Below, piece by piece: positions 6,058-58,213 of a stretch of 64,000 nt of DNA (the stretch's first letter is position 1; each line of letters begins with the position of its first letter). Origin of the DNA: Heptranchias perlo (lineage: Eukaryota); assembly GCF_035084215.1 (NCBI RefSeq), contig NC_090359.1, positions 12,276,001-12,340,000 of the forward strand, in the 5' to 3' direction. The notes beneath the pieces were generated by a model, which saw only the letters and a program-made list of their open reading frames with translations, was not told where the DNA came from and searched no databases. A program made the translations under genes and the position numbers.

Positions 6058-6087
6058 TTTTATACACTGCAGTCACCTGACTCCAAT
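6058..6087 (-). promoter_or_regulatory. ZP3 copy 1 core promoter: TATAAAA (6064-6058), E-box CACCTG (6074-6079), CCAAT (6083-6087)
   Basis: Same three motifs in the same order upstream of ZP3 copy 2; E-boxes in vertebrate ZP promoters are FIGLA targets (established), binding here is inferred. Confidence 0.7.
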
Positions 6088-7071
6088 TCAATGAGTCGCT
6101 GTTGTGATGCGATTGGATGTCTTTCAGAAAAAATACTCAATGTCTTTAGAATCCTTTTTTTTTCCAATCACTTCCACTGTCCTATTTCTCAAGTTTCTTT
6201 GGAAAAAAAAAGGATTGACCCGCGGTCTGGACTCAACATCAGTGACGGTGCGAACTGCGGGCTGTTAACTGGCAGTAATTGTCTGTCCCAATCAGCCTGA
6301 AGCAGAGTCCGTGGCCCACGGACTCTGACAACATCCACACGTCTCCCACGGAGAGAGGCCTGTGAGGAGAGTGCTGGGGCCGGTCGGTATTGGCGAGCCA
6401 CTTGCCGGCCAATCGAGTGTGGCCCTGCGGAAGTGCTGCAAGCAGGTGCAGAGCACAGAGGAGAGGAGAGCCATCGAGAGGGAAGGAGGGAGAAAGAGGG
6501 AAGGAGGCGAAAAACATCAGGCAGCTGCGAGGGGTGTGCTGCTGCTGTCAGCCTGAAACAGCAGGAAGAGGAGGTCGACGGCGATCGGGGTGGCCGACTG
6601 AAGGTAGGGGGGAGGCAAGAAGATCCTTTTCCAACAGGGGATTCCACCCCCAAGTGTCTGGCCCGTGACAGCTGGAGCTGCCTGGGTGAAGAAACTTTTG
6701 CCATCTGTGGAGGACTGAGCCTAGGCAGCTCCGGCTGTCTGGGAGAAGACATCTCCTCCCCCTGCCCACCGGAAGACTCCACGTTATCGGCCACCCGTGT
6801 ACGTGTACGTTCCTTCCCTCCAGAGACATTTCTGCAGCGGCCCGCCCCTGCAGACTCCCTCCTTCCTCTTTAAGGAACATCCCTCCCTCTCTCTCTTGTG
6901 GTTTCCGCATTTAAAAACAAAAAGGAAAAACGCCCCAGAAAAGGAGCCCCTCTCCCAATAGATCAGTACCATTTTGGGGAGAGGAGGTTTCCTTGGGCTT
7001 TTGGTCCAACAAAAAAAAAGGGAAAATACCTGGAAGACCTAAGATTTGGGGTGGGCGTGGCGTACAAGAGA

Positions 7072-9129
7072 ATGGCAACACCATCTTCGCCAGTGCCGGG
7101 ACCCAGCAGGACGTATGCGGGCGTTACTGCGGCTGCTGCTCCCGCTGCTCGTGCTACTCCTGCTGGCCCGGCGCCATTCCGCCTCGTGACGAGGAAGCAC
7201 GGGGTCAAGGCCTATGCCCACCCCGGCATGACGATTGAGGCCTGCGTGAAGGCCATGGCCGAGGTTGTCGGCCCCTCTGCCATCGTCGCGGCCTCGAAAG
7301 TGTACGGGAAGGTTGTAGTCTTCCTGAGGTCCGAGCGGACGGTGTCCCTGGCCCTTAGCAAGGGGCTCACGGTGGGCGGGACTTTCCTGCCGGTGGACCC
7401 GCTGGAGGCCACCGCGCAGCGGGTGGTGCTGTCAAACGTCCCGCCCTTTCTGCCGGATGAGCTCCTCCTCCCTCACCTGCGTCAACTGGGGGAGGTGAGG
7501 TCGGGGGTAACGCCGCTGTCGCTCGGGCTCAGGGAGACCAGCCTCCATCATGTCTACTCATTCCGTCGCCAGGCCTTTATCAAGCTGGCGTGGGAGGAGG
7601 TTACGGAGGGGGGCTTTAACGCCCTCCATGAGGGGACCGCCTACCGCGTCTTCTGGACGGCAGAGGGTGGGCGGTGCCATGCCTGTAAGGAGGTGGGGCA
7701 CCTGAGGAAGAACTGCCCCGCCTCCCAGGCCGCCAAAGCAGCTCCGGCGGCCGAGGCTGGCGCCGCCACCGCTCCTCCCCCCAAACCCGCCCCCGCGTCG
7801 GGAGAGTCCACTGCGTGGGCGGAGGGTGCCGACGAGGCCTCCGTCGGGGGAGAGGGAGGGAACCCTCGCCCGAAGAAGGCGCGGAAGAAGAGTAGACATC
7901 GGGAGGCTGGTCCCCGGGTTGGAAATCCTTCCAGCCAGCCCGAGGCCGTGGTCGTGACCGCGGCCAAACGACAACTCGCGGTCGCGGCAGAGCCCGGGCT
8001 GGCGGGTATTCAGGAGGGAGCGGAGGGGGGGGCCCCAGCAGACATGGGGCTCGCCCTCCCTCCGCCACCCTCCGGAAAGCAGAAAAGGCGCCGCTCCCTG
8101 GAAGCGGAGGGGAACCCTGCTAAGGGACGGCCCCCCGCGGAAAGGGAGTCGGCGTCGGCGGCGGATCCTGCGACCCCACCCTCCGTTTCCCACCGCCAGC
8201 GGGGGTCATCCACCTCTCGGGGGGAGGAGATCGTGCCCGTGCCTCCCGGGGGGGGGGGGGATGGAGAGACCCTGCCAAAAGGGGGGGGTTGCGGATTCGT
8301 GCACCGATGCGAGCATCCCGTTCACCGGGTCGGGGGTCCTGGGTGCCGGGGCCGAAGGGGCCGGATTCGTCTGCCCTCGGCTGGACCTCTCCCAGGACCT
8401 GCTCGACCTGATGGCGGGATTTAATAGGAACTTATCACCGGCCGGGTCGGTCGGTGGCGACGTGGGTGGGGAGACCCCCTCCTCCCAGTCTCTGGGCATG
8501 GAGCCGGGGGAGGTGGGAGAACTGGAGTACACGTTCTCCCCGGTTTCCCCGGGTTCCCCTTATATCCGGGTGGCAGTTTCCCACCGCTCGGAGGCTGGGA
8601 AGGGACCTCGCCCAGAGCCGCCCTCTGACCCGGACACCCAGGTAGAGCCCGGGGAGGACTCCTCTGCCGACGATCCTGGGGGTGGGATCGTGACAGAGGT
8701 GGGGCCGGCCGGCGCGGCCGTCCCGTTCTCCGCACCCTGTGCGGGGAGTGGGTCGGCCGCGGGCGACGATGATCCGGAGGAGGACGGGGACTCGGTGGAG
8801 GGCACTGGGGAGGATTTGGAGTTCGCCGCCAGTGAGGTGGTGGACACCCTCGTGCCCGGCACCGAGTCTCCCCTCATCCCCGTTGAGGAACTCCGGGATT
8901 TTGTGTCCGGTTGGACCCATCGTTGCGATGGCGTCCGGCTGGCCCTCGAACGTTGGTCGGAGCCGGCGCAATTAATCTGCTCGGTCCGGGCCGCTGTCGC
9001 GTCCGTGACCGCGGAAGAGGACGGCGGCAGGGTCGGGCTGCGCCGGCTCAGATCCCTCCTCACCGGGCTCTTGGGGGGGGGGGGGAGAAAAGGAGGTCGA
9101 CTAGCGGCCCCACTCCCTCCGCGCGTTAG
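7072..9129 (+). pseudogene. Tx1 copy A ORF1 (Gag-like, zinc knuckle CHACKEVGHLRKNC), two frameshifts at G runs
   Basis: Collinear with the intact 680-aa ORF1 at 28856-30898; frame changes at G8 8281-8288 and around G13 9073-9085. Confidence 0.85.
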
Positions 9130-9158
9130 CTTTAAGTTGGTTGCGCTGTGCTCTCGTC

Positions 9159-12100
9159 ATGGAGATAACCATAGCCAGCCTCAACATCAACGGCGGCAGA
9201 GACGCCCGCCGTAGATTTGACAAGTTCTCGGTCCTGCGGGACGGGAAGTATGCGGTGTGCTTTCTGCAGGAAACCCACACCGTTCCGGGAGACGAGGCCA
9301 CGTGGATCCTGGAATGGGGAGGGGGGGTCTACTTGAGTCACCTCGCCAGCGTTTCGAGCGGGGTGGCCATCTTGTTGGCCCCGACTTTTCAGCCGGAGAT
9401 CTTGGGGGTCAAGGAGCCGGTGCCGGGCCGCTTGCTCCACATAGCCCTTCGCCACGGGGACGTGCCGCTTCACCTGGTGAACGTGTACGCCCCCTGGTCC
9501 GGAGCCGAGCAAGTGAGCTTCTTTGAGGAAGTGTCCACTTACCTGAACTCCGTCGACGCCGGCGAGTGCATTATCCTCGGGGGGGATTTTAACCGCACCC
9601 TCGAGGCGAGGGACCGCTCCGGTCCCGCGCGTGCCCGAACGGCGACGGAGAAGTTGAGGGACCTGGTCGGGTCCTTCGACTTGGTGGACGTCTGGCGGAA
9701 TCTCCATCCCGACTCCGGCCAGTTCACCTTTGTGAGGGCCGGAGGGGGGAGCACCAGAATCGACCGCCTGTACGTTTCGCGGGCGTACGCCTCGTGCGTC
9801 CCGTCGGCCTCCATCCGGCCGGTGTCGTGCTCGGACCACCACCTGGTGTGGATGGAGCTCGCTCTGCTCCGCGCCCGGTCGGGGTCCGCGTACTGGCACT
9901 TTAACAACCGGCTGCTGGAGGACGCGCGGTTCCGGGACTCGTTCCGTCTGTTCTGGAGCGACTGGAGAGGGAAGCGGGGAGGCTTCTCCTCCTTGAGGCT
10001 ATGGTGGGACGTGGGCAAGGCTCACGTCCGCCTCTTCTGTCAAGAGTACGCGAGGGGGTCGACTAAGAGGCGGGAGTCCGAGGTCAGGCGGTTGGAGCAG
10101 GAGGTGCTTGGCCTGGAGTCCCGTCTCGGTCAGGCCGCCGAGGATCCGGCCCTGCGGCAGGTGTACGAGGAGAGGAAGGACGCTCTGAGGGACCTGCAAC
10201 TGGTCGGGTCCCGAGGAGCGTACGTGAGGTCGCGGCTCCAGCTCCTGCGGGACCTGGACCGCGGCTCTCCCTTCTACTCGCTGGAAAAGCGGCGGGGGGC
10301 TCGTAAGCAGCTCCTTACGCTGCTGGCCGACGACGGGTCCCTCGTCTCGGACCCGGAGGGAGTCAGGGCCCGTGCTCGATCTTACTACGAGGCTCTGTTC
10401 TCTCCGGATCCGTCCAGCGAGGAGGCGCGCAGAGTTTTGTGGGAGGACCTGCCGAAGGTCGGCCCGGAGGACGCCGAGCGTCTGGACGCTCCGCTCAGTT
10501 TGGCGGAGCTGACCGGCGCCCTCCACCAGCTCTCTAGGGGCAAGTCCCCGGGGCTGGACGGGCTGACCGTGGAGTTCCTCAGGGCCTTCTGGGACGTCCT
10601 GGGGGGCGACTACGCGCGGGTCCTGGGGGAATGTCTGGCGACCGGGGAGATGCCCCTTTCGTGGCGCAGGGCGGTCGTGGTCCTGCTGCCTAAGAAGGGG
10701 GATCTCCGCAACCTTAAAAACTGGCGCCCGGTCTCCCTCCTCAGCACGGATTATAAGGTCTTTGCCAAGGCGATGTCTGCTCGCCTGGGCACCGTGCTGG
10801 CCCACATGATCCACCCCGACCAGTCCTACACGGTCCCGGGCCGGAAGATCCACGATAACATCCACCTGGTCCGGGACCTGATCCACCATTCCCAGAGGGC
10901 TGGTCTGTCGGTCGCCTTCCTTTCCTTAGATCAGGGGAAGGCGTTCGACAGGGTGGATCACGAGTATCTATTCGGGACTCTGCGCGCTTTCGGGTTCGGG
11001 TCGCATTTCGTCGCCCGGATCCGACTTCTGTACGCCGCCGCGGAGTGTCTGATTAAGGTTAACGGATCCTTGACGGCGCCCCTTCGCTTCGGGAGAGGAG
11101 TGCGTCAGGGGTGCCCCATGTCCGGCCAATTATACGCCGTCTGCGTAGAGCCTTTCCTGCGCCTCTTGCGCAAGAGGTTGTCGGGACTGGCTCTGCGCGA
11201 GCCGGACGTGGAGGTCGTCCTTTCGGCTTACGCCGACGACGTGCTCCTCGTGGTCACGGATCCCCTTGACTTGCGGAGGATGCGCGAGTGCCAAGAGGTC
11301 TACTCTGCGGCGTCTTCCGCAAGGATCAACTGGGAGAAATGTTCCGGACTCCTGGTGGGTCAGTGGCGGGTGGACTCCCTGCCGGAGGAGCTCAGGCCTT
11401 TCGCCTGGAGTACCACGCACCTCCGGTACCTGGGAGTCTACCTCGGCCCTGCCGAGGAAGCCTGGCCGGCGAACTGGGAAGAGCTGGAGGCCAAAGTCGC
11501 CGCTCGCCTGGCGCGCTGGACAGGACTGCTCCGAGTGTTATCCTACAGGGGTCGTGTGCTGGTCATAAACCAGCTGGTGGCCGCCATGTTGTGGTACCGG
11601 TTGGTCACTTTGACCCCACCCCCCGAGTTTGTCGCCAACATTCAGAGGAAGTTCGTCGACTTCTTCTGGGCCAGAGGGATGCACTGGGTCGCTGCCGCGG
11701 TCCTGAGTCTCCCGCTTAGGGAGGGCGGTCAGGGGCTGGTGTGCGTCCGCACCCAGGTGGCAACTTTCCGCCTTCGGACGCTGCGGCGATACCTGTACGT
11801 TGAGCGTCCTCTTAGATGGCGTGCGCTGGCGACGTATTTTTTCCGCCAGCTGCACGGCCTGAACGACGACACGCAGCTCCTGTTCATCTCGCTGGTGGGC
11901 GGCCGCATGTCTTTGCAGGAGCTGCCTGTCTTTTACCAGGATCTGCTCAGGGTCTGGAACATGGTCGCCTCCGGTCGGAGCTCATGCCCGTCAGGGGTAG
12001 CGGCCGTCCTGCAGGAGCCGCTGCTCGGGAATCCGTTCCTCCGCGATATCGGCTTCGGCCACTCGCGGCTGTCGGTGCGGAGGGCCGTGGCCGGTCGGGT

Positions 12101-13061
12101 GACCAGAGTCAGGGACGTCCTGGATGGCGGTGGGTCGGGTTGGTTGGAGCCGTGGGCGCTGGCCGCACGGATGTCCTCGTGGCGTGCCGGGGACGCGGCC
12201 ATCGCCATCCGGGCGTTGAAATCGGCGCTCGGCCCTGACTCCACTCGGGATGTGGAGGCGGCTCAGGCGTGCGGAGCCATCCCGTCCGACCTGACCCCCG
12301 TTCGGACGGAGTTCCTCCTCGGCGCCAAACCCCGGAACCTCCCTCGGGGGGCCGCGCCTCACAACTTGAGCCGTCTCTCGGAAATTCCCTCCGTGCTGTT
12401 TCACACCGCGCGGAGGGATTTCCTGTACGGGCTGCTCCTGCACACCCTCCACTTCCTCGCCTTCGTCTCTCGCCCGGACACGCCCTGGCGTGCCATCCTG
12501 CCGTCCGGCGGAGACGGGGGTCCCCAGTGGGGGGCTCTCTACTCAGGGGTCCTCCCGTGTTACTTTGGGGATCTGGGGTGGAGGGTGGCGCACGGAGCAG
12601 TCGCGTGCAACCGGCGGTTACGCCATTTCACGGACACCCAGGCCGCTTGTGATTTCTGCGGCCTGGAGGAGTCCGTGTTCCATCTGTACACGGGGTGTGG
12701 GAGACTGCAGCCCCTGTTCCATTATTTGAAGGGGCTGCTCCTCAAGTTCTGGCTGCATTTCAGTCCCACGCTCCTGATCTTTGGCCGCCCGGTGAGGAGG
12801 GGGGCGGGCAGGTCGGTGGACGTTCTCGTGGGCCTGCTCCTGGGCCTGTCCAAGGTGGCCATCCACAGGTCTAGGATGATCGTGGTCCGTGGGGGCGGTC
12901 GCTCGGCCTGTCTGCCTCTCTTCCGCGGAATGCTCCGCGCCCGGGTGGCCCTGGAGATGGAGCACGCGGTGTCTGCCGGTACGCTCGAGGCTTTCCGCGG
13001 CCGGTGGGCACCGCAGGGGCTGGAGTGCATTCTGGACGAGGAGAATAAAATTTTAATTTGA
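9159..13061 (+). CDS. Tx1 copy A ORF2: AP endonuclease, reverse transcriptase and C-terminal zinc-binding domain (about 1300 aa, uninterrupted)
   Basis: SLNING, LQETH, GGDFN, RIDR, SDHH (EN); KSPGLDG, NWRPVSLL, GVRQGCP, YADD, YLG (RT); CDFCGLEESVFHLYTGC. Confidence 0.95.
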   Translation: MEITIASLNINGGRDARRRFDKFSVLRDGKYAVCFLQETHTVPGDEATWILEWGGGVYLSHLASVSSGVAILLAPTFQPEILGVKEPVPGRLLHIALRHGDVPLHLVNVYAPWSGAEQVSFFEEVSTYLNSVDAGECIILGGDFNRTLEARDRSGPARARTATEKLRDLVGSFDLVDVWRNLHPDSGQFTFVRAGGGSTRIDRLYVSRAYASCVPSASIRPVSCSDHHLVWMELALLRARSGSAYWHFNNRLLEDARFRDSFRLFWSDWRGKRGGFSSLRLWWDVGKAHVRLFCQEYARGSTKRRESEVRRLEQEVLGLESRLGQAAEDPALRQVYEERKDALRDLQLVGSRGAYVRSRLQLLRDLDRGSPFYSLEKRRGARKQLLTLLADDGSLVSDPEGVRARARSYYEALFSPDPSSEEARRVLWEDLPKVGPEDAERLDAPLSLAELTGALHQLSRGKSPGLDGLTVEFLRAFWDVLGGDYARVLGECLATGEMPLSWRRAVVVLLPKKGDLRNLKNWRPVSLLSTDYKVFAKAMSARLGTVLAHMIHPDQSYTVPGRKIHDNIHLVRDLIHHSQRAGLSVAFLSLDQGKAFDRVDHEYLFGTLRAFGFGSHFVARIRLLYAAAECLIKVNGSLTAPLRFGRGVRQGCPMSGQLYAVCVEPFLRLLRKRLSGLALREPDVEVVLSAYADDVLLVVTDPLDLRRMRECQEVYSAASSARINWEKCSGLLVGQWRVDSLPEELRPFAWSTTHLRYLGVYLGPAEEAWPANWEELEAKVAARLARWTGLLRVLSYRGRVLVINQLVAAMLWYRLVTLTPPPEFVANIQRKFVDFFWARGMHWVAAAVLSLPLREGGQGLVCVRTQVATFRLRTLRRYLYVERPLRWRALATYFFRQLHGLNDDTQLLFISLVGGRMSLQELPVFYQDLLRVWNMVASGRSSCPSGVAAVLQEPLLGNPFLRDIGFGHSRLSVRRAVAGRVTRVRDVLDGGGSGWLEPWALAARMSSWRAGDAAIAIRALKSALGPDSTRDVEAAQACGAIPSDLTPVRTEFLLGAKPRNLPRGAAPHNLSRLSEIPSVLFHTARRDFLYGLLLHTLHFLAFVSRPDTPWRAILPSGGDGGPQWGALYSGVLPCYFGDLGWRVAHGAVACNRRLRHFTDTQAACDFCGLEESVFHLYTGCGRLQPLFHYLKGLLLKFWLHFSPTLLIFGRPVRRGAGRSVDVLVGLLLGLSKVAIHRSRMIVVRGGGRSACLPLFRGMLRARVALEMEHAVSAGTLEAFRGRWAPQGLECILDEENKILI

Positions 13062-13606
13062 ACACTTGGTTTTGGTTTGTTTGGTTTTAGTATTTAAGCA
13101 CACACCACACCCCCCCTTCTTATAAAAGGGGGGCCTAACAAAATAAAAAAAAATATAAAAGGAAAAAAAAAATCTGAAAGTTTCTCTTTCTTTCAATCTC
13201 TTGGAATCATAACTTTGAATTATTTGATAATAATTTGATATTTTCACTGAAGTGGCTTTTCATAATCTGGTCAAGTTTATTACTTGTTAGTGATTGTGAT
13301 GTTGAGACAATATTCAAAGCAATCAAGTTGTCTTGAATGAATTTGCAAACCATCCATTGGTCAGAGAAATGGAAATTCCATCCCATGGATGGTGTGAATC
13401 GTCCCCAGTTCTAATATAGAGAATGGGTGTGTCTGAGGATTGGCAGCATGGGGGCATCAACTGGGCAAAGCATTGTGGGATGCATCATTTTTAGTTTTGA
13501 TTCTCATGAAATGTTGTTTGGTAAAATTCAGGATATTCAGCGAGAATGAGAGGCAGTGAAGATTACTGAATGCAATGTCACCCACACAAACATCTCCATT
13601 TGTGTC

Positions 13607-13975
13607 AGCTGTGGCTCAGTGGCAGCACTCTCACCTCAGAGTCAGAAGATTGTGGGTTCAAGTCATCATCCAGAGACTTGAGCACATAATCTAGGCTGAC
13701 TAAGGGAGTGCTGTACTGTCGGAGGTGCCGTCTTTTGGATGTGATATTAAATCGAGGCCTCATCTGCTCTCTCAGGTGGACGTAAAATATCCCACAGCAC
13801 TATTTCGAGGAAGAGCAGCGGAGTTCTCCCCAATATCTGGACCAATATTTATCCCTCAACTAACATCACTAAAACAGATTATCAGGTCAATATTTCATTG
13901 CTGTTTTTGGGTCCTTGCTGGAGGCAAATTGACTGCCGCATTTCTTACCTTACAACAGTGACTACACCTCAAAGG
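13607..13975 (+). mobile_element. tRNA-derived SINE with Deu domain (SacSINE1/DeuSINE-like)
   Basis: A box gtggctcagtgg, B box ggttcaagtc, Deu-like core ggtgccgtcttttggatgtgatattaaatcgagg...gtaaaatatcccacagcact; second fragment at about 61061-61196. Confidence 0.75.
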
Positions 13976-14104
13976 TGCGAACTATGCAGCAGTCAAAGCT
14001 ACCAGATAATCCACACTGACTCGTAAAATTATGGCTCAACAACGTATGAAATGTGGTGACATTGATATCCCAAAAGTGCCTTTAGAGATCATAATATCCT
14101 ACTA

Positions 14105-14395: not shown

Positions 14396-15338
14396 ATATA
14401 AAGATATTAACATGGACTGACTGAAGACGGCAATTCTATCACACCCAGTGCAAGTCACAAGTTCCTAAACTTCACTTGGAAACACTGGATAATTACAGCT
14501 ACAGCATCAACATTTGAATCCATTCATAGGGGTGAAGGAGATGAATGGAGAACCCATAGGATTTGGAAAGGTTGATTACAATTTGGTATGGAACACACAA
14601 TAGGACTATAGGCAAATCGACACATTTATGGAGGAGCTGATTGTATTGTGTTTATGAATTGATGGCATTGGGATGTGGAGTTTCAGGCAAAATATCCATT
14701 TAACTTGGTTTAAATGAAATGGTGATCCAGTAGAATTTAGAATTGTAATCTAGTATTAACTGCACAATGGGATAAATACAAATTGATAGATTTATGGATG
14801 AGCTGCTTATATTGGGTTTATGAATTGATGGAACAGTAGTGGTATGGAAGAGTTTAGGAGCCTTATCTATTCAACTTAATGGTTCAAGTTAGTTGTTTAG
14901 TGCATTTACTCCGTCTCCCAGAAGGAAGATTTTGTTTGCTGGAGTTTAGTTCGAGGTATTTTTTCTGTACCATACCCAATTTATTATTCATGGGGGAGAT
15001 TAACAGGGGGTTGGGGGGCAGAAGATGAAAATGAAGGGAAATAGACAAACAGGGAACCTGCACTCCCCCATATGAGACCTATTTGACTCCAAACAAACAG
15101 TTTATTAGGAGTAATAGTGAGTGATTTCATAAGCTACCCCAACTACCTACTGAGGTCTGTAGCATCTTTGAAAAAAAAGCATCTGGATTGTTCTTCCCCA
15201 GGCAGATACTATTCTTTAAAAAATTGCCTATTGGACTGAAATTACTAGTTCACTTTCCTTGTGTTTTCATAGAAGTTACAACATGGAAACAGGCCCTTCG
15301 GCCCAACATGTCCATGTCGCCCAGTTTATACCACTAAG

Positions 15339-18287: not shown

Positions 18288-19226
18288 TAGTTTAAACCCT
18301 CCCCAACAGCACTAGCAAACACTCCCCCTAGGACATTGGTTCCAGTCCTGCCCAGATGCAGACCGTCCAATTTGTACTGGTCCCACCTCCCCCAGAACCG
18401 GTTCCAATGGCCCAGGAATTTGAATCCCTCCCTCTTGCACCATCTCTCAAGCCACGTATTCATCTTAGCTATCCTGTCATTCCTACTCTGACTAGCCCGT
18501 GGCACTGGTAGCAATCCTGAGATTACTACCTTTGAGGTCCTACTCTTTAGTTTAACTCCTAACTCCCTAAATTCAGCTTGTAGGACCTCATCCTGTTTTT
18601 TACCTATATCGTTGGTGCCTATATGCACCACGACAACTGGCTGTTCACCCTCCCCCTCCAGAATGTCCTGCAGCCGCTCCGAGACATCCTTGACCCTTGC
18701 ACCAGGGAGGCAACATACCATCCTGGAGTCTCGGTTGCGTCCGCAGAAACGCCTGTCTATTCCCCTTACAATCGAGTCCCCTATCACTATAGCTCTGCCA
18801 CTCTTTTTCCTGCCCTCCTGTGCAGCAGAGCCAGCCACGGTGCCATGAACCTGGCCACTGCCACCTTCCCCTGGTGAGCCATCTCCGCCAACAGTATCCA
18901 AAACGGTATACCTGTTTTGGAGGGAGATGACCGCAGGGGACCCCTGCACTGCCTTCCTACTCTTCCTCTGTCTGTTGGTCACCCATTCACTATCTCCCTC
19001 AGTAATTTTTATCTGCGGTGTGACCAACTCACTGAACGTGCTATCCACGACTTTCTCAGCATCGCGGATGCTCCAAAGTGAGTCCATCCGCAGCTCCAGA
19101 GCCGTCAAGCAATAGCTGCAGCTGGACACACTTCCCGCAGGTGAAGGAATCAGGGATACAGGAAGGAGCCCTGAATTCCCACATCCCACAAGAGGAACAT
19201 GACACGGCGCTGGGATCTCCTGCCAT
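18287..19226 (-). pseudogene. CR1 ORF1 (N-terminal CxxC..CxxC, SGNH/GDSL esterase domain), frameshift near 19110
   Basis: ATG at 19226 reads MAGDPSAVSCSSCGMW..TCGKC; a different frame continues LTALELRMDSL..GDSIVR..HIGTND..DGLHL. Confidence 0.8.
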
Positions 19227-19544
19227 GACTTAACCCTTAAATTAGCTTAAGAACAACTACAATGTCAAGAGAGAAAAAAAGGAAAGAAAAACTACTTACC
19301 ACTCCCTTTAAGGAGTTTACTCCTTTAAATTGTTCTCAATTTAGAGAATGTTAACTACACTAGGGACCTTGATTCACTAAAAAATAAACGCTACTTCCTA
19401 TAAGACCTGCAGACCTTCCCTTTCCTTTTACTTCAGTTACTGCAGATAAGGAGAAATACTCACCTGAACCTACTCACCAATCAGGTGCCTCCCCTGTGTC
19501 GCGTCCCGATCTGATTCCTGACGTCACTTCGAACTCGGTCGCAG

Positions 19545-20252: not shown

Positions 20253-22810
<2,558 letters not shown>

Positions 22811-22885
22811 CTTTAAATTAACTTTAACAAAACTAAACAACTCTATTGAAGCAAGAAACTGAAAAACAGCCACCCAAAGCTCCAT

Positions 22886-23570: not shown

Positions 23571-23653
23571 ACCCTGCGGTGCCCAGCGGTCGCGGAAGGC
23601 ATCAAGCGTAACGGTGGACACCACATGCTCCCTCTCCGGGGCCACCCGGGCAC
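23571..23653 (-). mobile_element. Inverted Tx1 ORF2 3' fragment
   Basis: Reverse complement encodes RVAPEREHVVSTVTLDAFRDRWAPQG. Confidence 0.8.
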
Positions 23654-25651: not shown

Positions 25652-27878
<2,227 letters not shown>

Positions 27879-28012
27879 CTTAACTTTTACTGTTAACAGA
27901 AACCTCACTTCAAACACCACTGCATGAAACATGCAGATGGGAGCTTGAGCATTTTGTGACTTGAAAGACTTCCCTCACAAGTTCTTGTATTGAGACTACT
28001 GGGACAGCCTGC

Positions 28013-28147
28013 ATTTAAACCAGGAATGGACAGCACCAATGATGATTGACAATCCCTGATAGCCAATCAGGAATCTTCCCTGAATCCAGGCACCAATTAA
28101 CAAAGGACAGGGCTCTGGGGGAGAGATTGATATCCAGAGCCAATCAG
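28013..28147 (-). promoter_or_regulatory. Ferritin copy 2 promoter: TATA-like TTTAAAT (28019-28013) and four CCAAT boxes (28036, 28063, 28093, 28140)
   Basis: Motifs seen directly; layout parallels the copy 1 promoter. Confidence 0.6.
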
Positions 28148-28855
28148 AGCTTTGCAATACAGACCAGCAAGGCCTTGGAGGTGTTTGTGGCTGGACTGCC
28201 ACTGAGTGGAGTGGAGAGCAGAGAGAGCAGGCCCTTGCCTGGGTCCCTTGGGGAGAAGGAGAAGGAGAAGGAGAAAGAAGGAGAAACCACCATCAACAAG
28301 GAGGGAGGGAGAAGGAGAAAAAGAGCACCAACCAGTGGGAGGAAGAGGTGGTCGGTGCAGTGAGGTGTGTCGGCTGAAGGTAGGGGGAGGAAGAAGACTT
28401 CAGAGGACAGGGGTCCCCCCCAAGTGTCTGGCCCGGGACAGCTGGAGCTGCCTGGGTGAAGTTACTTTCTTTTTCAAATCTTTGGAGGACTGAGCCTAGG
28501 CAGCTCCAGCTGTCTAGGGGAAGACATCTCCTCCCCCTGCCCACCGGAAGACAGGCAGAAGAGGATCCACCTTTTAAGGTGCAACCCCGCCCCTCTTCCA
28601 CCCACTTCTGCAGCAGCCTACCCCTGCAGACTCCCTCCTTCCCATTCTGCCATCCATCCCTCCCACCTTCTCCTGCTCTCTGGGATATTCCCTTGCTCTC
28701 CGGGGTATTCTGGGAATATATAAAAACAACAAAGGGGCCCTCTCCCAACCAAGCACTGGGATTCGGGGAGAGAGGTATCCTCAAGAATTCTTTTAAAAAA
28801 AGGCCAATTTCCATCCAAAGGCCTGAGACTTGGGGTGGGTGTGGCTCTTTAGGTC

Positions 28856-30898
28856 ATGGCTTCACCATCTTCGCCGGTGCCGGGACCCAGCAGGACGTAT
28901 GCGGCGGTTACCTCGGGGGCCGCTCCCACAGTTCGTGCCGCTCCTGCTGGGCCGGCGCCTTTCCGCCTCATTACGAGGAAGCATGGGGTGAAGAGCTACG
29001 CCCACCCCAACATGACCATTGAGGCCTGCGTAAAGGCCATGGCCGAGGTTGTCGGCCCCTCGGCCATCGTCGCGGCCTCAAAAATGTACGGGAGGGCGGT
29101 GTTCTTCCTGAGGTCCGAGCGGGCGGTGTCCCTGGCCCTTAGTAAGGGGCTCACGGTGGGCGGGACCTTCCTGCCGGTGGACCCGCTGGAGGCCACCGCG
29201 CAGCGGGTCATTTTATCTAACGTCCCGCCTTTCCTGTCGGACGAGCTCCTCCTCCCCCACCTACGTCAACTGGGGGAGGTGAGGTCGGGGGTAACGCCGC
29301 TGCCGCTCGGACTCAGGGAGAACAGCCTCCGGCATGTTTACTCCTTCCGTCGCCAGGCATTCGTCAAGCTGGCACGGGAGGAGGTTACGGAGGGGGGCTT
29401 TAACGCCCTCCACGAGGGGACCCCTTACCGCGTCTTTTGGACGGCAGAGGGTGGGCGGTGCCATGCCTGTAAGGAGGTGGGGCACCTGAAGAGGAACTGC
29501 CCTGCCTCTCAGGCCGCCAAAACAGCTACGGCGGCCGGGGCTGGCGCCGCCACCGCTCCTCCCCCCAACCCCGCCCCCGCGTCGGGAGAGTCAACTGCGC
29601 GGGTGGAGGTTGGCGTCGAGGCCTCCGCCAGGGGGGAGGAGGGGAACCCTCGCCAGAGAAAGGCGCAGAGAAAGAGGAAGAATCTAGAGGCTGGTCCCCG
29701 GGACAGAGAAGATCTCAGTCAGCCCGAGGCCGTGACCGCGGCCAGTCAACATCTTGCGGTCGCGACAGAGCCCGGGCTGGCGGGTGATCAGGAGGGAGCG
29801 GAGGCGGGGGTCCCAGCAGACATTGAGTCCCCCCTCCCTCCGCGACCCTCCTGGAAGAAAAAGAGGCACCACTCCCCGGAAGCGAACGGGCTCCCTGCTA
29901 AGGGACGGCCCCCCGTGGAAGGGGAGTCGGTGCCGGTCGCGGATCCTGCGGCCCCGCCCGTGACATCCGAACAGCGGCGGGGGTCATCCACCTCTCGGGG
30001 GGAGGAGATCGTGCCCGTGCCTCCCGGGGGGGATGGAGAGACCCCGCCGATAGGGGGGGTCGCGGATCCGCATTTACCCGACACTACCCTGTTCACCGGG
30101 TCGGGGGTCCTGGGTGCCGGGGTGGGCGAGGCCGTTGCGGCCGAATTCGTCTGCCCCCGGCTCGACCTCTCCCAGGACCTGCTCGACCTGGTGGTGGGTT
30201 TTAACCAGAATATCTCGCCGGCCGGGTCGGTCGTTGGCGACGTGGGTGGGGGGACCCCCTCCTCTCAGTCTCTGGGCTCGGAGCCGGGGGAGGTGGGAGA
30301 ACTTGAGTACACGTTCTCCCCGGTTTCCCCGGGTTCCCCTTATATCCGGGTGCCGGTCTTTCACCGCTCGGTGGCTGGGGAGGGTCCCCGCCCGGCGCCG
30401 CCGTCTGACTCGGACCCCCCGGTGGAGCCCGGGGAGGACTCCTCTGCCGACGATCCTGGGGGTGGGATCGTGGCGGAGGCGGGGCCGGCCGGCGCGGCCG
30501 TCTCGTTCTCAGCACCCTGTGCGGGGGCTGGGTCGGCCGCGGGCGACGATGACCCGGAGGAGGACGGGGACTCGGTGGTGGGCACTGGAGAGGATTTAGA
30601 GTTCGCCGCCAGTGAGGTGGTGGACGCCCTCGTGCCCTGCACCGAGTCTCCCCTCATCCCCGTTGAGGAACTCCGGGATTTTGCGTCCGGTTGGAGCAGT
30701 CGTCGCGATGGCGTCCGGCTGGCCCTCGACCGTTGGTCGGAGCCGGCGCAGTTAATCCGCTCGGTCCTGGCCGCCGTCGCGTCCGTGGCCGCGGAAGGGG
30801 ACGGCGGCGGGGTCGGGCTGCGTCGGCTCAGATCCCTCCTCACCGGGCTCTTGAGGGAGTGGCGGTCGACTAGCGGCCCCGCTCCCTCCGCGCGTTAG
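28856..30898 (+). CDS. Tx1 copy B ORF1 (680 aa, CCHC zinc knuckle, low-complexity C-terminal half)
   Basis: Uninterrupted ORF; VILSNVPPF, CHACKEVGHLKRNC. Confidence 0.9.
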   Translation: MASPSSPVPGPSRTYAAVTSGAAPTVRAAPAGPAPFRLITRKHGVKSYAHPNMTIEACVKAMAEVVGPSAIVAASKMYGRAVFFLRSERAVSLALSKGLTVGGTFLPVDPLEATAQRVILSNVPPFLSDELLLPHLRQLGEVRSGVTPLPLGLRENSLRHVYSFRRQAFVKLAREEVTEGGFNALHEGTPYRVFWTAEGGRCHACKEVGHLKRNCPASQAAKTATAAGAGAATAPPPNPAPASGESTARVEVGVEASARGEEGNPRQRKAQRKRKNLEAGPRDREDLSQPEAVTAASQHLAVATEPGLAGDQEGAEAGVPADIESPLPPRPSWKKKRHHSPEANGLPAKGRPPVEGESVPVADPAAPPVTSEQRRGSSTSRGEEIVPVPPGGDGETPPIGGVADPHLPDTTLFTGSGVLGAGVGEAVAAEFVCPRLDLSQDLLDLVVGFNQNISPAGSVVGDVGGGTPSSQSLGSEPGEVGELEYTFSPVSPGSPYIRVPVFHRSVAGEGPRPAPPSDSDPPVEPGEDSSADDPGGGIVAEAGPAGAAVSFSAPCAGAGSAAGDDDPEEDGDSVVGTGEDLEFAASEVVDALVPCTESPLIPVEELRDFASGWSSRRDGVRLALDRWSEPAQLIRSVLAAVASVAAEGDGGGVGLRRLRSLLTGLLREWRSTSGPAPSAR

Positions 30899-30927
30899 GT
30901 TTAAGTAGGTTGCGCTGTGCTCTTGCC

Positions 30928-32962
30928 ATGGAGATAACCATAGCCAGCCTCAACATCAACGGCGGCAGAGACGCCCGCCGTAGATTTGACAAGTTCTCGG
31001 TCCTGCGGGACGGGAAGTATGCGGTGTGCTTTCTGCAGGAAACCCACACCGTTCCGGGAGACGAGGCCACGTGGATCCTGGAATGGGGAGGGGGGGTCTA
31101 CTTGAGTCACCTCGCCAGCGTTTCGAGCGGGGTGGCCATCTTGTTGGCCCCGACTTTTCAGCCGGAGATCTTGGGGGTCAAGGAGCCGGTGCCGGGCCGC
31201 TTGCTCCACGTAGCCCTTCGCCACGGGGACGTGCCGCTTCACCTGGTGAACGTGTACGCCCCCTGGTCCGGAGCCGAGCAAGTGAGCTTCTTTGAGGAAG
31301 TGTCCACTTACCTAAACTCCGTCGACGCCGGCGAGTGCATTATCCTCGGGGGGGATCTTAACCGTACCCTCGAGGCGAGGGACCGCTCCGGTCCCGCGCG
31401 TGCCCGAACGGCGACGGAGAAGTTGAGGGACCTGGTCGGGTCCTTCGACTTGGTGGACGTCTGGCGGAATCTCCATCCCGACTCCGGCCAGTTCACCTTT
31501 GTGAGGGCCGGAGGGGGGAGCACCAGAATCGACCGCCTGTACGTTTCGCGGGCGTACGCCTCCTGCGTCCCGTCGGCCTCCATCCGGCCGGTGTCGTGCT
31601 CGGACCACCACCTGGTGTGGATGGAGCTCGCTCTGCTCCGCGCCCGGTCGGGGTCCGCGTACTGGCACTTTAACAACCGGCTGCTGGAGGACGCGCGGTT
31701 CCGGGACTCGTTCCGTCTGTTCTGGAGCGACTGGAGAGGGAAGCGGGGAGGCTTCTCCTCCTTGAGGCTATGGTGGGACGTGGGCAAGGCTCACGTCCGC
31801 CTCTTCTGTCAAGAGTACGCGAGGGGGTCGACTAAGAGGCGGGAGTCCGAGGTCAGGCGGTTGGAGCAGGAGGTGCTTGGCCTGGAGTCCCGTCTCGGTC
31901 AGGCCGCCGAGGATCCGGCCCTGCGGCAGGTGTACGAAGAGAGGAAGGACGCTCTGAGGGACCTGCAACTGGTCGGGTCCCGAGGAGCGTACGTGAGGTC
32001 GCGGCTCCAGCTCCCGAACACGGCTCTCCCTTCTTCTACTCGCTGGAAAAGCGGCGGGGGGCCCGTAAGCATCTCCTTACGCTGCTGGCAGACGACGGGT
32101 CCCTCGTCTCGGACCCGGAGGGATTCAGGGCCCGGGCTCGATCTTACTACGAGGCTCGATTCTCTCCGGAGCCGTCCAGTGAGGAAGCGCGCAGAGTTTT
32201 GTGGGAGGACCTGCCAAAGGTCAGCCCGGAGGACGCCGACCGGCTGGACGCTCCGCTGAGTCTGGCTCGGAGGGCTGCTCCTCACAACTTGAGCTGTCTC
32301 GGAAATTCCCTCCGTGCCTTTTCACTCCGCGCGGAGGTATTTCCTGTACGGGCTGCTCCTGCACACACTCCACTTCCTCGCCCTCGTCTCTCGCCCGGAC
32401 ACGCCCTGGCCTGCCGTCCGGCAGAGGCGGGAGTCCCCAGATGGGGGGGCTCTCCACTCGGGGATCCTCCCGTGTTACATCGGGCATCTGGGGTGGAGAG
32501 TGTTGCACGGAGCAGTCGCGTGCAATAGGCGTTTACCCCATTTTACGGACTCCCAGGCCGCCTGCAATTTCTGCGGCCTGGAGGAGTCCGTGTTTCATTT
32601 GTTCACGGGGTGTGGGAGACTGCAGCCCCTGTGATTATTTGGAGGGGCTGCTCCTCAGGTTCTGGCTGCAATTCAGTCCCACGCTCCTGATCTTTGGCCG
32701 CCCGGTGAGGAGGGGGGCGGGCAGGCCGGCGGACGTCCTCGTGGGCCTGTCCAAGGTGGCCATCCACAGGTCCAGGTTGCTTGCGGCCTGTGGGGGCGGT
32801 CGCTCGGACTGTCTGCCTCTCTTCCGCGGAATGCTCCGCGCCCGGGTGGCCCTGGAGATGGAGCACGCGGTGTCTGCCGGTACGCTTGAGGCTTTCCGCA
32901 ACCGGTGGGCACCGCAGGGGCTGGAGTGCATCCTGAACGAGGAAAATAAAATTATAATTTGA
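30928..32962 (+). pseudogene. Tx1 copy B ORF2 remnant (intact EN, frameshifts, about 1.8 kb RT deletion)
   Basis: EN almost identical to copy A up to ~32010; no YADD region; C-terminus split across frames. Confidence 0.9.
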
Positions 32963-33044
32963 AACTGGTTTTGGTTTTTCTTTGGGATTTTTGCACATAA
33001 AAACACCCCAAATCCCCCTCCTTTTAAAAGGGGGGCCTAAAAAA

Positions 33045-33380
33045 TGTCGCTGTTGGGAATGGAAAAAAGTCGCGAAAAAATCCTGGCTGCTAAAAACAGC
33101 AAAAAGGTCACTGCTTTGATGCGATTGGATGTCTTTCAGACTCATCAGAAAAAGAGTAGCTGATAAACCCCCGGCTGCTCTTCCATCCCACACTCCTGAG
33201 CTGAGCGGAGTGGTGAAAATAGTAAAAAACTGTTTTTGATCCAACTCAATGTCTTTCGGATGCTCCTTTCGTTCAATCACTTCCATTGTCCTATTTCATA
33301 AATTTCTAAAAGAAAAAATAAGGAGTCACTGTTGGGATACGATTGGATGTCTTTCAGACAGACCATCAATCCATCCAGGA
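33045..33380 (+). repeat. Stack of short modules separated by A-rich runs, between two Tx1 elements
   Basis: GTCRCTG...GATTGGATGTCTTTCAGA at 33107-33140 and 33323-33358 (partial at 33046); modules shared with 6093-6214 and 23287-23310. Confidence 0.75.
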
Positions 33381-34208
33381 ATCAGCCTGACTGAACTTGC
33401 CAGTTAATACTGCTGAGTGGAGCAGAGGTCAGAGTTAAAGCTCTGGGTGGAGAGCAGGGTGAAAAGAACTAGCCCTTGCTTATATAACTGAATCCAGGAG
33501 AAGGAGAGGAACAAACAACCAACAGGGAGGAAGGAGGAAGAAGACGACCACCATTCACTGAGGGGTGTGCTGCTGCTGACCGATACCATCCAACAGAGGG
33601 GGGGGGGGGGGGAGGAAGAGGAGGTCGGTGCGGTGCAGTGTGACCAACTGAAGGTCGGGGGAGGAAAGATCATACAGAACAGGGGGTTTCCCCCCCAGTG
33701 TCTGGCCCAGGACAGCTGGAGCTGCCTGGGTGAAGTTACTTTTCAATCTGTGGAGGACTGGGCAGCTCCAGCTGTCGAGGGGAAGACATCTCCTCCCCCT
33801 GCCCACCAGAAGATCCACCTGTTAAGGTGCAACCCCACCCCTCTTCCACCCACTTCTGCAGCAGCCCACCCCTGCAGACTCCCTCCTTCCCATTCGACCA
33901 TCCCTCCCTCCCACTATCACGGATATTCTTTTTTACAAAATCCTGCAAAGGAGCCCCTCTCCAAACAGTGGGAATTGGGGAGAGGAGGTTTTCTTTTGCA
34001 AGGCCTTTGTTATTAGTCAGCCTGAGACTTGGGGTGGGTGTAGCTCGATGGAATATGGCGACACCATGTCCGCCGATGGGCACTGCAGGGGCTGGAGAGC
34101 ATCCTGGACAAAAATAATAAAATCTTAATTTGACACTGGTTTTTGGTTTTCTGCACAAACACACCCTAAACCCCCACTAATTATAAAAGGGGGGCCTAAG
34201 AAAAAAAA
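33381..34208 (+). mobile_element. Bipartite non-autonomous Tx1 derivative (5'UTR and first ORF1 codons fused to last ORF2 codons, 3'UTR and A tail)
   Basis: 5'UTR hairpin 33711-33776; ATGGCGACACCATGTCCGCCG joined to TGGGCACTGCAGGGGCTGGAG at about 34075; TATAAAAGGGGGGCCTAA and A tail. Confidence 0.88.
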
Positions 34209-37021
34209 GCAGAGATCAGAGACAGCGGTCACAGTCAGGGCCAGGATCAGGATCAGGACCACCTCAGACTCCACACCTAAAACGGAAGAAGAAACCAATG
34301 GTTAGTGAGTGAAGGAAATATTGAGGGGAAAATGGAAACCAGCAGTCCGCCAACTCACCACCTGGAGACCTCTCCTGCATCCTTTGCTCAACATCATTAA
34401 GGGGCTCAGTTGCCAGGTCTGACACTTCAGGATCCAGAATGACCAGGGGTCCAAGTGAGGCCTCACCCTCCCACTTCAATTCAGCATCACTCCCTGCAAT
34501 ATCAAACATTCCAGTTAGAGAGGGTAAAGGGTGACCTCCAACATAGAGAGGATCCACTGCAGCAACTTTCAGGTGACAGGTGATGAAAATCTGAGGGACA
34601 CATTCAATACAAGTTGTTATTTAGTGACCTCCTCCCAACATGGGGAACCCAATGTTTGGCTTCCTCTTACCAAGGAACGGTCATCTCCAAAGAAGCGGAA
34701 TGCATCCAGGTCAAACTGGAGTTTGTCCAGCTCACGTTCACCTCTTGGCAACACAAAGGTTGAAAAGGAGTCCTCAGCTTTGCTGTCCAGGAGGCAACTG
34801 AAGAAAGATTTAAAAAACAGACAAAGTGAATTAAGTGAACCTTTGGGACATAACCAGCTGGAATAGGCAGAGAGCTCCTTACCCATGGTAGTCAATGATG
34901 TTGTATCTTGGGGTGGAATCCTTGTCTGGGCTCAATGTAGCTGCACAGCTGTCAATGTAGAGCTTCAAGGGCATGTGGTTGGTCATTGAAACAGAGGCCT
35001 CAATGTGAATGAGGTCACCCAGGTAGTAGACAGTCGAGGTGCGCTCTGTAAGCCAATCATCTGAAGTACAAGAGGACAAGGGTTGGAGACAGTGGGTGTA
35101 ACTCCCAGTGGGAGACGACAGAAAAGCACTCCCCATCCACCCATCACATACCGTTCATAAGACACAGTGAGAATGACAGAAGCCCTTCTCCAGACTTGGT
35201 CGAGCTGAATGGGATCCAGGTGGGCTTGATAGGGTCACTGCTCACATTGCCCTTCCTGGAAGGACAGGCGTGTAATTTCAGGACAACTTCAGAGAACTGC
35301 ACCTGCTGTAGACCTCATTTGCAATAGAGTAAAGATTCTTACCTAAAATAGTGGCACTCAATGGGAATGACTGCTCCATTAGTTCTCACAATGACAGATC
35401 CACAAGCATTTGGGGTATGGTTCAGGTGGGTGGTGAAGACCAGGAAATCTCCAGCCATCTGAAAGACATCAGCTTAAGGAATGAAGAGCTGGTCTTATTG
35501 GACAAGAGCTATTTCTGGTCATTTTCCTGCCCTGTTAAACAGCAGTTTGAGGGGTTTTCACTGCTCCTCAATCACACATGATTGAAGCAGCTCCACCATT
35601 GGCAGAAGTTGCCTGCAGCAGCCTCTGTTACTCTGCTCAGTCCACCTTCTATTACAGGGGACTTCAGGCCTGCAGTCAGAAACCCTGAAATGATTGGCAC
35701 AGCCAGATTTGATGAGCATTCTTTCCCAAATAGAATAGAGTTTTCACCTTAAGGGGCTTCAAGTTACCCCTGATAAGGAGCACAAAACACAACATCACTT
35801 TTAAACCTCATCTGTATCCATGGAATCAAGGGGATTGGCAGGTGTAATAACCAAAAGTGGAGTTCCCCTTTAATTCATTGTATCCCAATTATTATTCCAC
35901 TTGTTTCATCTTTCAAGAGAAGTCTCAACAGGAACTTCCACACTGAACATTCATTGACCACAAGTTGAGGCAACAGGCCTGAATATCCACAGGAAGGCAC
36001 AGAAAAGATAAATCAATTGAGGCACAAAAGAACAGAGTGGTTTGGAGAAATGTAGGTGAAGGTTCAAGGTCAATAGAATTGAATCTCAGAGTGAGAGTAG
36101 TAATGACCCATTTAAGAAAGATGCAGTCCCTCAGTGACAATTTGAAGTTCTTTTTAAATATGAAGCTAAGATAGACATGGCAACATAAAGAAGTAGTTTC
36201 ACACAGGGTGATATTTAACAGTGGGCAAGAATTTATACACAGATTTCATTCAGGGATCTCCTCAGTGGCTGGAGTTTCACCCGATGTTAATGAGTTCTGA
36301 GTGGGCAGTAATCTACACAGTGAAATTGGAGCAAGAGTTGAGGAATCACATTACCTGCAATCTGCTGCCACATTCATGGAGCCCATAGTCAAAGAGGACA
36401 GTGTGGTTCTGAGAGTAGATCCCAGTTGGCCAACAACCTGCTGTCCCCAGGGTCAGGTCAGCAGCTTTAATCAGGTGCCTGGTTCTAAATAAATCCATGT
36501 CTACCCTCACCAGCAGGTTCTGCTCTCCACACTGCACCATCACAGTCTGCAGTGGGGACAGACTTCTCCCCTCAGACACACTGAAATGGGAATCAAAGGG
36601 AGGCACAGGGAGAGGGACTCTCTGGGGCACAGGGGTGGGTTTTACTCTTCTCCATGGAAATCTCTGCCCTCTAAACTGTTGCCAAATGTCAGAGCAACAA
36701 ACCACTCCAACTAACACCAGCACCGGGAACAAACCTCTCACCACAAAATCCCCCATGATACCAAACAACTCAACTATCACTTCACCCACCAACCAGCACC
36801 TTTTTTTTTTCTTTTTCTTTTTTTTTCCATGGAAATCTCTGGCCTCTAAACTGTTCCCAAATATCAGAGCAACAAACAGCTCCAACTAACACCGGGACCG
36901 GGACCGGGACCGGGACCGGGACCGGGACCGGGACCGGGACCGGGACCGGGACCGGGACCGGGACCGGGACCGGGACCGGGACCGGGACCGGGACCGAACC
37001 TCTCACCACTAAATCCCCCAT
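34207..37021 (-). pseudogene. zp3: ZP3 copy 2, disrupted (main ATG 36756; extra partial exon 1 upstream; deletion of half of exon 6 through exon 7; exon 9 cut by the Tx1 tail)
   Basis: Exons and introns closely match copy 1; junction gaggatc|cactgc at about 34551; C-terminal codons and stop absent. Confidence 0.9.
36891..36996. repeat. (ACCGGG)n microsatellite, about 17.5 units, inside the duplicated ZP3 signal-peptide sequence
   Basis: Perfect hexamer array; reads (VP)n on the minus strand. Confidence 0.95.
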
Positions 37022-37065
37022 GATACCAAACAACTCAACTATCACTTTCCCCACCAACCAGCACC

Positions 37066-37099
37066 TTTTATACACAACCTGCAGTCAGCTGACTCCAAT
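37066..37099 (-). promoter_or_regulatory. ZP3 copy 2 core promoter: TATAAAA (37072-37066), E-box CAGCTG (37086-37091), CCAAT (37095-37099)
   Basis: Matches the copy 1 promoter. Confidence 0.7.
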
Positions 37100-37136
37100 T
37101 GTCCCAGATGAGGCTAAACGAGAAAACTAGACGAAA

Positions 37137-37450
37137 CTGGAGTGCATCCTGGACCGAAATAATAAAATTATTATTTGACACTTATTTTGGGTTTTTTGGT
37201 TTATTGCACATGAACACACCCTGAACCCCCCCCCCCCCACTACTTATAAAAGGGGGGCCTAAAAACACACAAGGAAAAAGGGGGAAAAAAAGCCTCATTC
37301 TGACTGAACTTCCAGTCGACAAAAAAAACCACCCAAACCCCCCCTTCTTATGAAAGAGGGCCGAAAACACAAGGGAAAAAAATTATTATGACACATATTC
37401 TGGGTTTATTGTTGACTGCACATGAACACACTCGAAGAATAAAAAAACAA
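37137..37450 (+). mobile_element. Cluster of about three Tx1 3'-end stubs plus a short putative Tx1 5'-end piece
   Basis: ctggagtgcatcctggac..hairpin..A tail (37137-37291); tcattctgactgaacttccag (37295-37315); second hairpin ~37338-37362; third 3'UTR piece ~37380-37450. Confidence 0.8.
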
Positions 37451-58200: not shown

Positions 58201-58213
58201 TTCATTATTAGTG

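Follow-up and report, generated by a model that had tools for sequence, protein, structure and literature searches.

Target-preferring elements of the Tx1 clade of long interspersed nuclear elements (LINEs) insert at fixed sites in DNA transposons, long terminal repeat (LTR) elements, U2 and U5 small nuclear RNA genes, 5S genes, satellites and microsatellites (PMC4494074). The target-preferring families use multi-copy targets, form tandem insertions and have been proposed to depend on transcription of the flanking DNA, and a family is regarded as target-specific when one type of sequence flanks more than 20% of its copies (PMC4494074). Here we analyse a Tx1 family of the shark Heptranchias perlo, based on a 64,000-nt stretch of its genome (the window; NCBI RefSeq assembly GCF_035084215.1, 3.25 Gb, contig NC_090359.1, positions 12,276,001 to 12,340,000 of the forward strand) in which copies of the family stand behind the promoters of two ZP3 and two ferritin genes. 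Contigs carry working labels (C1, C9, C43 etc.), the window being C38:12,276,001-12,340,000, and a third repeated host locus is labelled locus X. Xenopus Tx1L, the families Keno, Kibi and Koshi and the crocodilian Tx1-Mar resemble the shark family in having two open reading frames (ORFs), an apurinic/apyrimidinic endonuclease (APE) with a reverse transcriptase (RT), multi-copy targets and tandem insertions. However, these named families use fixed sites, whereas the targets here are promoter zones of protein-coding arrays, a few hundred bases wide and hit on both strands, and most copies are dispersed.

Outside the clade, R2 is co-transcribed with its host, and host sequence is kept at the 5' end of its RNA (PMC4494074, PMC6895275). 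Its life in the tandem and highly transcribed 28S rDNA array is similar to that of the shark family, for which host co-transcription is suggested by host letters in front of the elements (leaders) and host fragments behind their tails (tags). The restriction-like endonuclease of R2, its single exact site and single orientation, its transcription by RNA polymerase (Pol) I and its target changes of 0 to a few bp are all absent here. R9 of bdelloid rotifers makes a 126-bp target duplication (PMC6895275) and thus shares a very long duplication with the shark family; R9 is rDNA-specific with a fixed stagger, whereas the duplications described below vary from 73 to 234 bp around full-length copies of an APE-type element. 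Tf1 of fission yeast and the retrovirus MLV prefer Pol II promoter regions through tethering factors (PMC7459421), but these are LTR elements with integrases, whereas the present case appears to be a LINE with a preference for Pol II promoters. By analogy, the family seems to live like R2 and to choose its sites like Tf1 while belonging to neither group. Further parallels are the P elements and TRE5-A of Dictyostelium. In mammalian L1 3' transduction, A-tailed flank tags, also serial ones, identify source copies; compared with these, the tags found here are short (~10-350 nt), have variable ends and trace to three promoter-proximal loci. A full-text literature search, with most subscription papers and the Repbase reports outside its scope, found no Tx1 element at protein-coding promoters, nor any description of a ZP3 or ferritin array in sharks. 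The targets known for target-preferring Tx1 families are RNA genes, microsatellites and other transposons, and Pol II promoter preference is known for LTR elements; a LINE with its intact copies concentrated at egg-gene promoters would represent a third way to germline expression.

The explanation that we consider probable is that this Tx1 family inserts preferentially, in either orientation, near the start of a few multi-copy genes, and that copies at these places likely depend on the promoter of the host and are the main sources of new insertions. The element in question was identified from the full-length copy behind the first ZP3 gene of the window (element 1). Its ORF2 carries an N-terminal APE endonuclease (PF03372) and an RT (PF00078) according to Pfam and is 50% identical to the Xenopus Tx1 ORF2 over 1295 aa, with 63% in the RT region (a sequence comparison, no tree); because of these domains and this identity the family can be placed in the Tx1 clade. 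The ORF1 translation contains a CX2CX4HX4C word, and Pfam gave no match for ORF1. The marks of target-primed reverse transcription are present, namely an A tail, 5' truncation and target site duplications (TSDs).

The window holds the two ZP3 and two ferritin genes, all on the minus strand, together with at least eight pieces of this single LINE family. A first-pass annotation had proposed that each of the four genes has a plus-strand piece of one Tx1 family behind its promoter and that the four inserts are independent, and both statements were borne out in the window. The junctions differ and each has its own set of paralogues, which rules out that all four descend from one ancestral insertion. 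Since every junction of the window is found again in paralogues, there were four events, each amplified by duplication.

The ferritin array on C43 allowed a controlled comparison. The exact ferritin pattern occurs in 74 copies, 34 of them on C38, 31 within 375 kb of C43 and nine on two small contigs. The C43 array (4.34-4.73 Mb) was taken whole as a 400-kb stretch, in which BLAST located 63 ferritin genes. Its Tx1 matches were grouped by hand from their flanks into 15 junction classes; one 55-bp Tx1 match with the flank of another class was dropped as a rearrangement, and three full-length classes were placed by their junction sequence, since tandem units inflate the printed distance. Thirteen of the 15 classes (seven antisense, six sense) lay at most 700 bp upstream of an ATG, and the remaining two at -1956 and +643. 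As this zone makes up 13.6% of the non-Tx1 sequence of the stretch (binomial p 4e-10), the arrangement goes beyond chance. Three other repeats of this array served as controls (CR1, a second LINE-like repeat and a short interspersed element; ~16 classes); one of their 74 matches had an end between -700 and +100, and the difference between Tx1 and the controls near ferritin ATGs was significant (Fisher p 7e-6). The junction classes range in identity from 73% to 97% and are therefore of different ages, which argues that the promoter preference is old and lasting. All nine full-length copies on C43 are antisense and upstream, and several have a 680-aa ORF1 and an ORF2 of 1283-1301 aa. Five full-length copies form a tandem array, in which each unit is preceded by 76 or 160 bp of promoter with two to three CCAAT words.

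The exon-1 pattern of ZP3, an oocyte gene, has 116 copies in the assembly, and 94 of the first 100 matches listed are on C38, where the array extends from 3.6 to 20.9 Mb. We compared a further 79 C38 promoters and scored Tx1 up to 1.9 kb upstream. The nearest Tx1 piece was sense in 21 and antisense in 18 promoters, and the other 40 had no Tx1 within this distance. In all, 39 of the 79 promoters hold Tx1 within ~320 bp of the TATA box, a share for which there is no proper background rate since the gene bodies were surveyed only to ~400 bp. At least 12 junction types were distinguished by eye, from ~65 bp downstream to 150 bp upstream of the TATA box. Several sense copies entered the A-run of the TATA box separately, one with a short TSD lies at the first CCAAT box, and others are found ~80-100 bp upstream. 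Exon 1 holds full-length sense copies, and the antisense types comprise stubs as well as full-length copies. The native ZP3 promoter is present in the paralogues that lack Tx1, and empty promoters have also been hit by young truncated Tx1 copies with short TSDs of their own. Two expectations of the first-pass annotation did not hold. A fixed head-to-head orientation was not found, sense copies being about as common as antisense ones (21 versus 18 at ZP3, 6 versus 7 at ferritin), and the gene is not spared: many copies lie in the TATA box or in exon 1, and the 3' end of the second ZP3 gene of the window is cut by Tx1. The arrays themselves, with at least 116 ZP3 and at least 74 ferritin copies, are apparently undescribed in the literature searched. 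As a separate observation, a tRNA-like sequence was noticed by eye ~780-830 bp upstream of the TATA box of one promoter of the ZP3-2 type.

Genome-wide, the Tx1 3'-end pattern has 712 exact matches. The dispersed set consists of 70 of the first 100 matches listed, located on C1-C3, and these copies are mostly short and 5'-truncated. A clear TSD of 10-19 bp (mode 14) was found for 45 of the 70, and their nick sites share only an AA start, unlike the single conserved target of the Keno, Kibi and Koshi type. The proposal of promoter targeting stands insofar as independent insertions pile up at ZP3 and ferritin promoters, also on a second contig, but CCAAT did not emerge as the recognised motif. 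Target specificity of the family as a whole was not supported: the 70 dispersed copies occupy unrelated sites, and 61 of them have no promoter-like flanks. We therefore describe the family as having a modest general promoter bias plus extreme hot spots. By stricter criteria, which were fixed after the Tx1 flanks had been read, promoter-like flanks were seen at 9 of 70 dispersed copies compared to 5 of 177 control windows (p 0.004). Promoter proximity is thus modestly enriched relative to controls, with no orientation rule at ZP3 and ferritin. The 177 control windows came from 59 chance-match loci, which were added because the 30 CR1 controls were all from the first 1.2 Mb of C1; one C38 locus was dropped, the three windows taken per locus are non-independent, and one positive control window is itself a Tx1 fragment. 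One CR1 pattern search gave no matches. Some dispersed copies lie at clear promoters by eye, for example in multi-copy clusters on C4, C5 and C29; one gene with a head-to-head Tx1 copy is presumably histone-H2B-like, and another target gene we take from its translation to be LACTB2-like.

The distribution of 5'-intact copies differs from that of the dispersed ones. The 5'-head motif has 167 matches, 20 on C1-C37 and at least 80 on C38 among the matches listed (to 16.2 Mb), C38 being 0.9% of the assembly; nine of the 20 copies on C1-C37 lie at locus X. The 5'-intact copies are therefore concentrated in the ZP3 and ferritin arrays, and array amplification adds to their number. The 20% threshold (PMC4494074) refers to the flanks of all copies, here 712 3' ends; of the 5'-intact copies, at least 80 of 167 are on the ZP3/ferritin contig, with flanks read for part of them. 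On C14 (36.189-36.198 Mb) ~12 3' pieces of Tx1 are piled up in either orientation, with tags from ZP3, ferritin and locus X; they surround a short frame that begins with MEPENSY, and there is no clear promoter.

Host sequences attached to the copies point to where these copies came from. Many tails are mosaics in which A tracts alternate with short fragments, all enclosed by the TSD, and 22 of the 70 dispersed copies have a mappable A-tailed tag, derived from ZP3 (8), locus X (7), ferritin upstream DNA (1), the Tx1 head (5) or the Tx1 body (1). The 16 tags from ZP3, ferritin or locus X appear to mark these loci as sources, and such tags offer a ready map of source loci. An A tract is joined to the letters that follow the ZP3 TATA box at 43 places, 16 of them on C1-C33. 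Most of these joins have a single 3'UTR variant, which also occurs in an intact full-length sense copy placed in a ZP3 TATA box (C38:13.2 Mb), and this copy matches the commonest ZP3 tag. The ferritin flank of the C38 element-1 family recurs on nine dispersed copies, one of which, on C11, also has the two-step tail of that family. These matches are as predicted by read-through from source copies. At the other end, 10 nt of ferritin upstream DNA precede the head of a C30 copy and 48 nt of locus X that of element 1; the RNAs of those copies would therefore have begun outside the element. Leaders and tags together are compatible with transcription from host promoters, oocyte expression of these ferritins being assumed.

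Elements also moved between the loci: a ZP3 tag occurs inside a ferritin intron, a ferritin tag beside a ZP3 copy, and ZP3-promoter tags at locus X. Since the three loci are unrelated, homology does not explain this traffic. Locus X was found on C13, C16, C23, C32 and C37, within ~2 Mb of the contig end and beside a long satellite, and its Tx1 copies are single or in tandem. It has CCAAT boxes, a splice-donor-like word, a GC-box-rich stretch and a 150-bp match to ZP3 intron 1; as the tblastx matches listed were confined to this 150-bp intron segment, locus X was rejected as a ZP3 or ferritin gene. Recombination has probably acted as well. Element 1 stands between a ZP3 promoter (left) and ferritin upstream DNA (right), element 2 of the window between a ferritin promoter (left) and pieces of ZP3 promoter (right), and a tail-to-ferritin join like that of element 1 occurs at 16 places on C38. 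Recombination between Tx1 copies likely moved the ferritin block into the ZP3 array. Two side observations concern the tails. At C22:27.129-27.131 Mb one insert within a single short TSD has ~8 segments, including a stretch that reads through a ZP3 promoter and repeated TATA-site fragments, and would document one insertion after another into a single ZP3 TATA box. The non-A letters in the A tracts of the 70 dispersed copies are 73 G, 7 C and 6 T; G-mixed tails recall TENT4 tailing, with RT slippage as an alternative.

Full-length copies differ from truncated ones in their target duplications. They are flanked by long direct repeats of 73-234 bp. The repeats measure 222-234 bp at locus X, exon 1 of ZP3 has one of 73 bp, the C43 tandem units have 76 and 160 bp, and two unique sites gave 122 bp (on C9, within a CR1) and 205 bp (on C30). 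Truncated copies of 1.9-2.6 kb have flank matches of 10-15 bp or none, and the norm for APE-type LINEs is 10-20 bp (PMC6895275). Two 5'-intact candidates on C20 and C31 had no 3' end in the stretch examined. A requirement for homology to a paralogue is ruled out by the C9 and C30 copies. At promoters the duplications copy CCAAT-bearing segments, giving tandem arrays of promoter piece plus element, and this would place transcription-factor sites on both sides of the element. The switch from ~14-bp to 70-230-bp duplications with full-length insertion bears directly on how the second-strand step of LINE integration, still poorly understood, takes place, and the intact copies found make it testable.

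In mechanistic terms, the preferred explanation starts from the insertions at ZP3, ferritin and locus X, which lie at most a few hundred bases from the gene start and have a loose AA-type nick site that includes the ZP3 TATA box. Very open, active oocyte chromatin, or a tether to a promoter factor, would guide the element there rather than the DNA sequence. Its RNA would start in host DNA, by sense or divergent transcription, and read through a weak 3' end into the flank, and duplication of the array would then multiply each junction. A more far-reaching version, which we offer only tentatively, is that this LINE no longer relies on its own promoter and is steered to the most active Pol II promoters of the oocyte, each full-length insertion duplicating 70-230 bp of promoter, so that every new copy, and likewise every tandem-array unit, would receive promoter DNA of the host for itself. 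If true, the cycle would be self-reinforcing, and it would shuffle and may help to amplify the ZP3 and ferritin arrays.

Several observations weigh against the explanation that we prefer. Automatic CpG-island and CCAAT counts showed no difference between flanks near the dispersed copies and flanks ~1 kb away (7 versus 7 of 70 in one CpG test, 4 versus 5 of 70 in another), the criteria that did show one were set afterwards, and 61 of 70 dispersed copies are away from promoters. Half of the ZP3 set is empty (40 of 79), and the C38 counts are inflated by segmental duplication. One ZP3-intron tag has no source copy in the assembly, where its two matches are both dispersed. In one insert there are four tags from different ferritin paralogues, which under read-through needs repeated hits at one site. 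The element-1 head has three CCAAT words, making an internal promoter possible, and long duplications at unique sites amount to two cases. Finally, the expression data that speak for it (ZP3 spliced and very deep in two, and the Tx1 body covered in all, of four contig sets from related organisms) come from sets whose RNA status is guessed and which are unstranded and without transcript start or tissue.

One alternative, which we regard as unlikely, assumes a weak liking for open DNA only: early promoter hits were amplified with the arrays and became the only expressed copies, and later junctions came about by recombination, gene conversion and re-insertion into A tails. Multiplication of single junctions is evident, with one old sense class in ~24 C43 genes and a stub at the ferritin-1 position in 23 of 30 C38 ferritin loci (the window's own included); likewise the C43 tandem units are 96-99% identical, and most dispersed copies are away from promoters. 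However, when duplicates are collapsed, 13 of the 15 C43 classes still fall in 13.6% of the sequence with widely differing identities, and the other repeats of that array show no such clustering. Nor would the alternative account for the young truncated copies with their own short TSDs in empty promoters, or for the exchange of elements among three unrelated loci.

Marginally less likely again, in our estimate, is that tags and homing arise from RNA in trans: the RT would prime on the short, A-tailed nascent RNAs of these genes or jump from one to another, and tags or leaders, by RNA-DNA pairing, would steer the complex to paralogous promoters. Tag starts indeed vary, with at least ten of them within the locus X leader and a shift from letter to letter in one head, and both the insert with four ferritin tags and the intron tag lacking a source copy would fit, as would the template jumping without homology that has been described for LINE RTs (PMC6895275). 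On the other hand, the tags are tied to particular 3'UTR variants, their origin is not abundant spliced mRNA but introns, upstream DNA and the TATA box, and tandem arrays supply junctions at several of the same tag starts. Long duplications form at unique sites without homology, and in the cross-traffic the receiving locus is unrelated to the tag. Very improbable is an element specific for a sequence or for NF-Y that enters head-to-head immediately upstream of CCAAT promoters and leaves the gene intact. The nine of nine antisense upstream full-length C43 copies and head-to-head matches by eye at three other promoters (C4, C29 and the histone-like gene) might suggest it, but sense copies are equally common, many copies destroy the TATA box or exon 1, conservation of the target is limited to AA, most copies are dispersed and 21 of 39 occupied ZP3 promoters contradict the rule, which could hold at most for full-length copies at ferritin genes, as a bias.

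Within the window, the first gene, ZP3-1, has its coding span at 3171-6013 (minus strand), with nine exons, an intact frame of 460 aa by frame check and a ZP-N Pfam domain; its eight introns are visible as splice joints in the RNA contigs from related organisms. The native ZP3-1 promoter occupies 6058-6211 (minus strand), with the TATA box at 6058-64, CCAAT-type boxes and an A-rich end, and is common to paralogues without Tx1. DNA from ~6089 had been taken as non-shared and ~6290 as the start of element 1; 6089-6211 is native ZP3 promoter found in most paralogues, and the insert starts at 6212. From there, on the plus strand, follow the 48-nt leader of element 1 (6212-6259; native locus X sequence, repeated on C13, C16, C23, C32 and C37) and element 1 itself at full length (6260-13172; head, ORF1, ORF2, 3' end at 13138 and A tail). 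Its ORF1 starts at 7072 and has 450 aa compared to 676-682 aa in intact copies elsewhere, and its ORF2 (9159-13061) encodes the 1300-aa protein with APE and RT. The 3' flank (13173-14000, plus strand) is ferritin upstream DNA, not ZP3 upstream DNA, and its start recurs as a tag on dispersed copies.

Ferritin-1 (20249-22892, minus strand) has four exons and its TATA box at 22886-92. Behind it are an old antisense Tx1 3' stub (23107-23282, plus strand), whose identical junction occurs in seven C43 genes, and an old Tx1 fragment in sense to the gene (23572-23651, minus strand), which in the C43 paralogues lies ~600 bp upstream of the ATG. Ferritin-2 with its promoter spans 25644-28160 (minus strand). 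TATA-like words are present at all four places proposed at first (6058-64, 22886-92, 28013-19 and 37066-72), but the one at 28013-19 is in a poorly conserved word; the TATA box that matches the paralogues, TATAAATA, is found in 19 of 33 exact-pattern C43 genes and lies ~25 bp further downstream (~27986-93), where it is mutated in the window. Element 2 (28161-33043, plus strand) has a 680-aa ORF1 and a broken ORF2 that lacks 1.8 kb, and its 5' junction is common to members of the C43 tandem array. ZP3 promoter pieces (33044-33380, plus strand) stand between its tail and element 3, an internally deleted Tx1 with the head fused to the 3' end (33380-34208, plus strand) that truncates the 3' end of ZP3-2.

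ZP3-2 (34209-37072, minus strand; TATA box at 37066-72) is broken. An insert of A tract only (36801-36826) lies between two copies of the exon-1 start and, with the duplicated exon-1 segment, leads to an early stop; 253 bp are deleted. At 36891-36996, within the first of the two exon-1 copies, a hexamer has expanded into a perfect repeat of 17.7 copies. Old antisense Tx1 stubs are found behind the ZP3-2 promoter (37137-37450, plus strand), in a layout shared by several paralogues. A further Tx1 3' fragment with a tag (47870-48479, minus strand; the Tx1 part at 47986-48479) is away from any promoter, and its tag resembles an old Tx1 head by eye.

Other features of the window are, at 46419-47384 and 47790-47930, a rhodopsin-family seven-transmembrane frame and the DNA just downstream of it, 14-letter words of which recur 30-55 times on C38, indicating that this block was also amplified in the array. 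A young CR1 (15267-19300) has a 990-aa ORF2 and an esterase-like ORF1, its 3' pattern has 23,257 exact matches, and near-identical copies are found inside Tx1 on C23 and within the C43 array. A 32-bp minisatellite of ~38 copies lies at 58210-59465.

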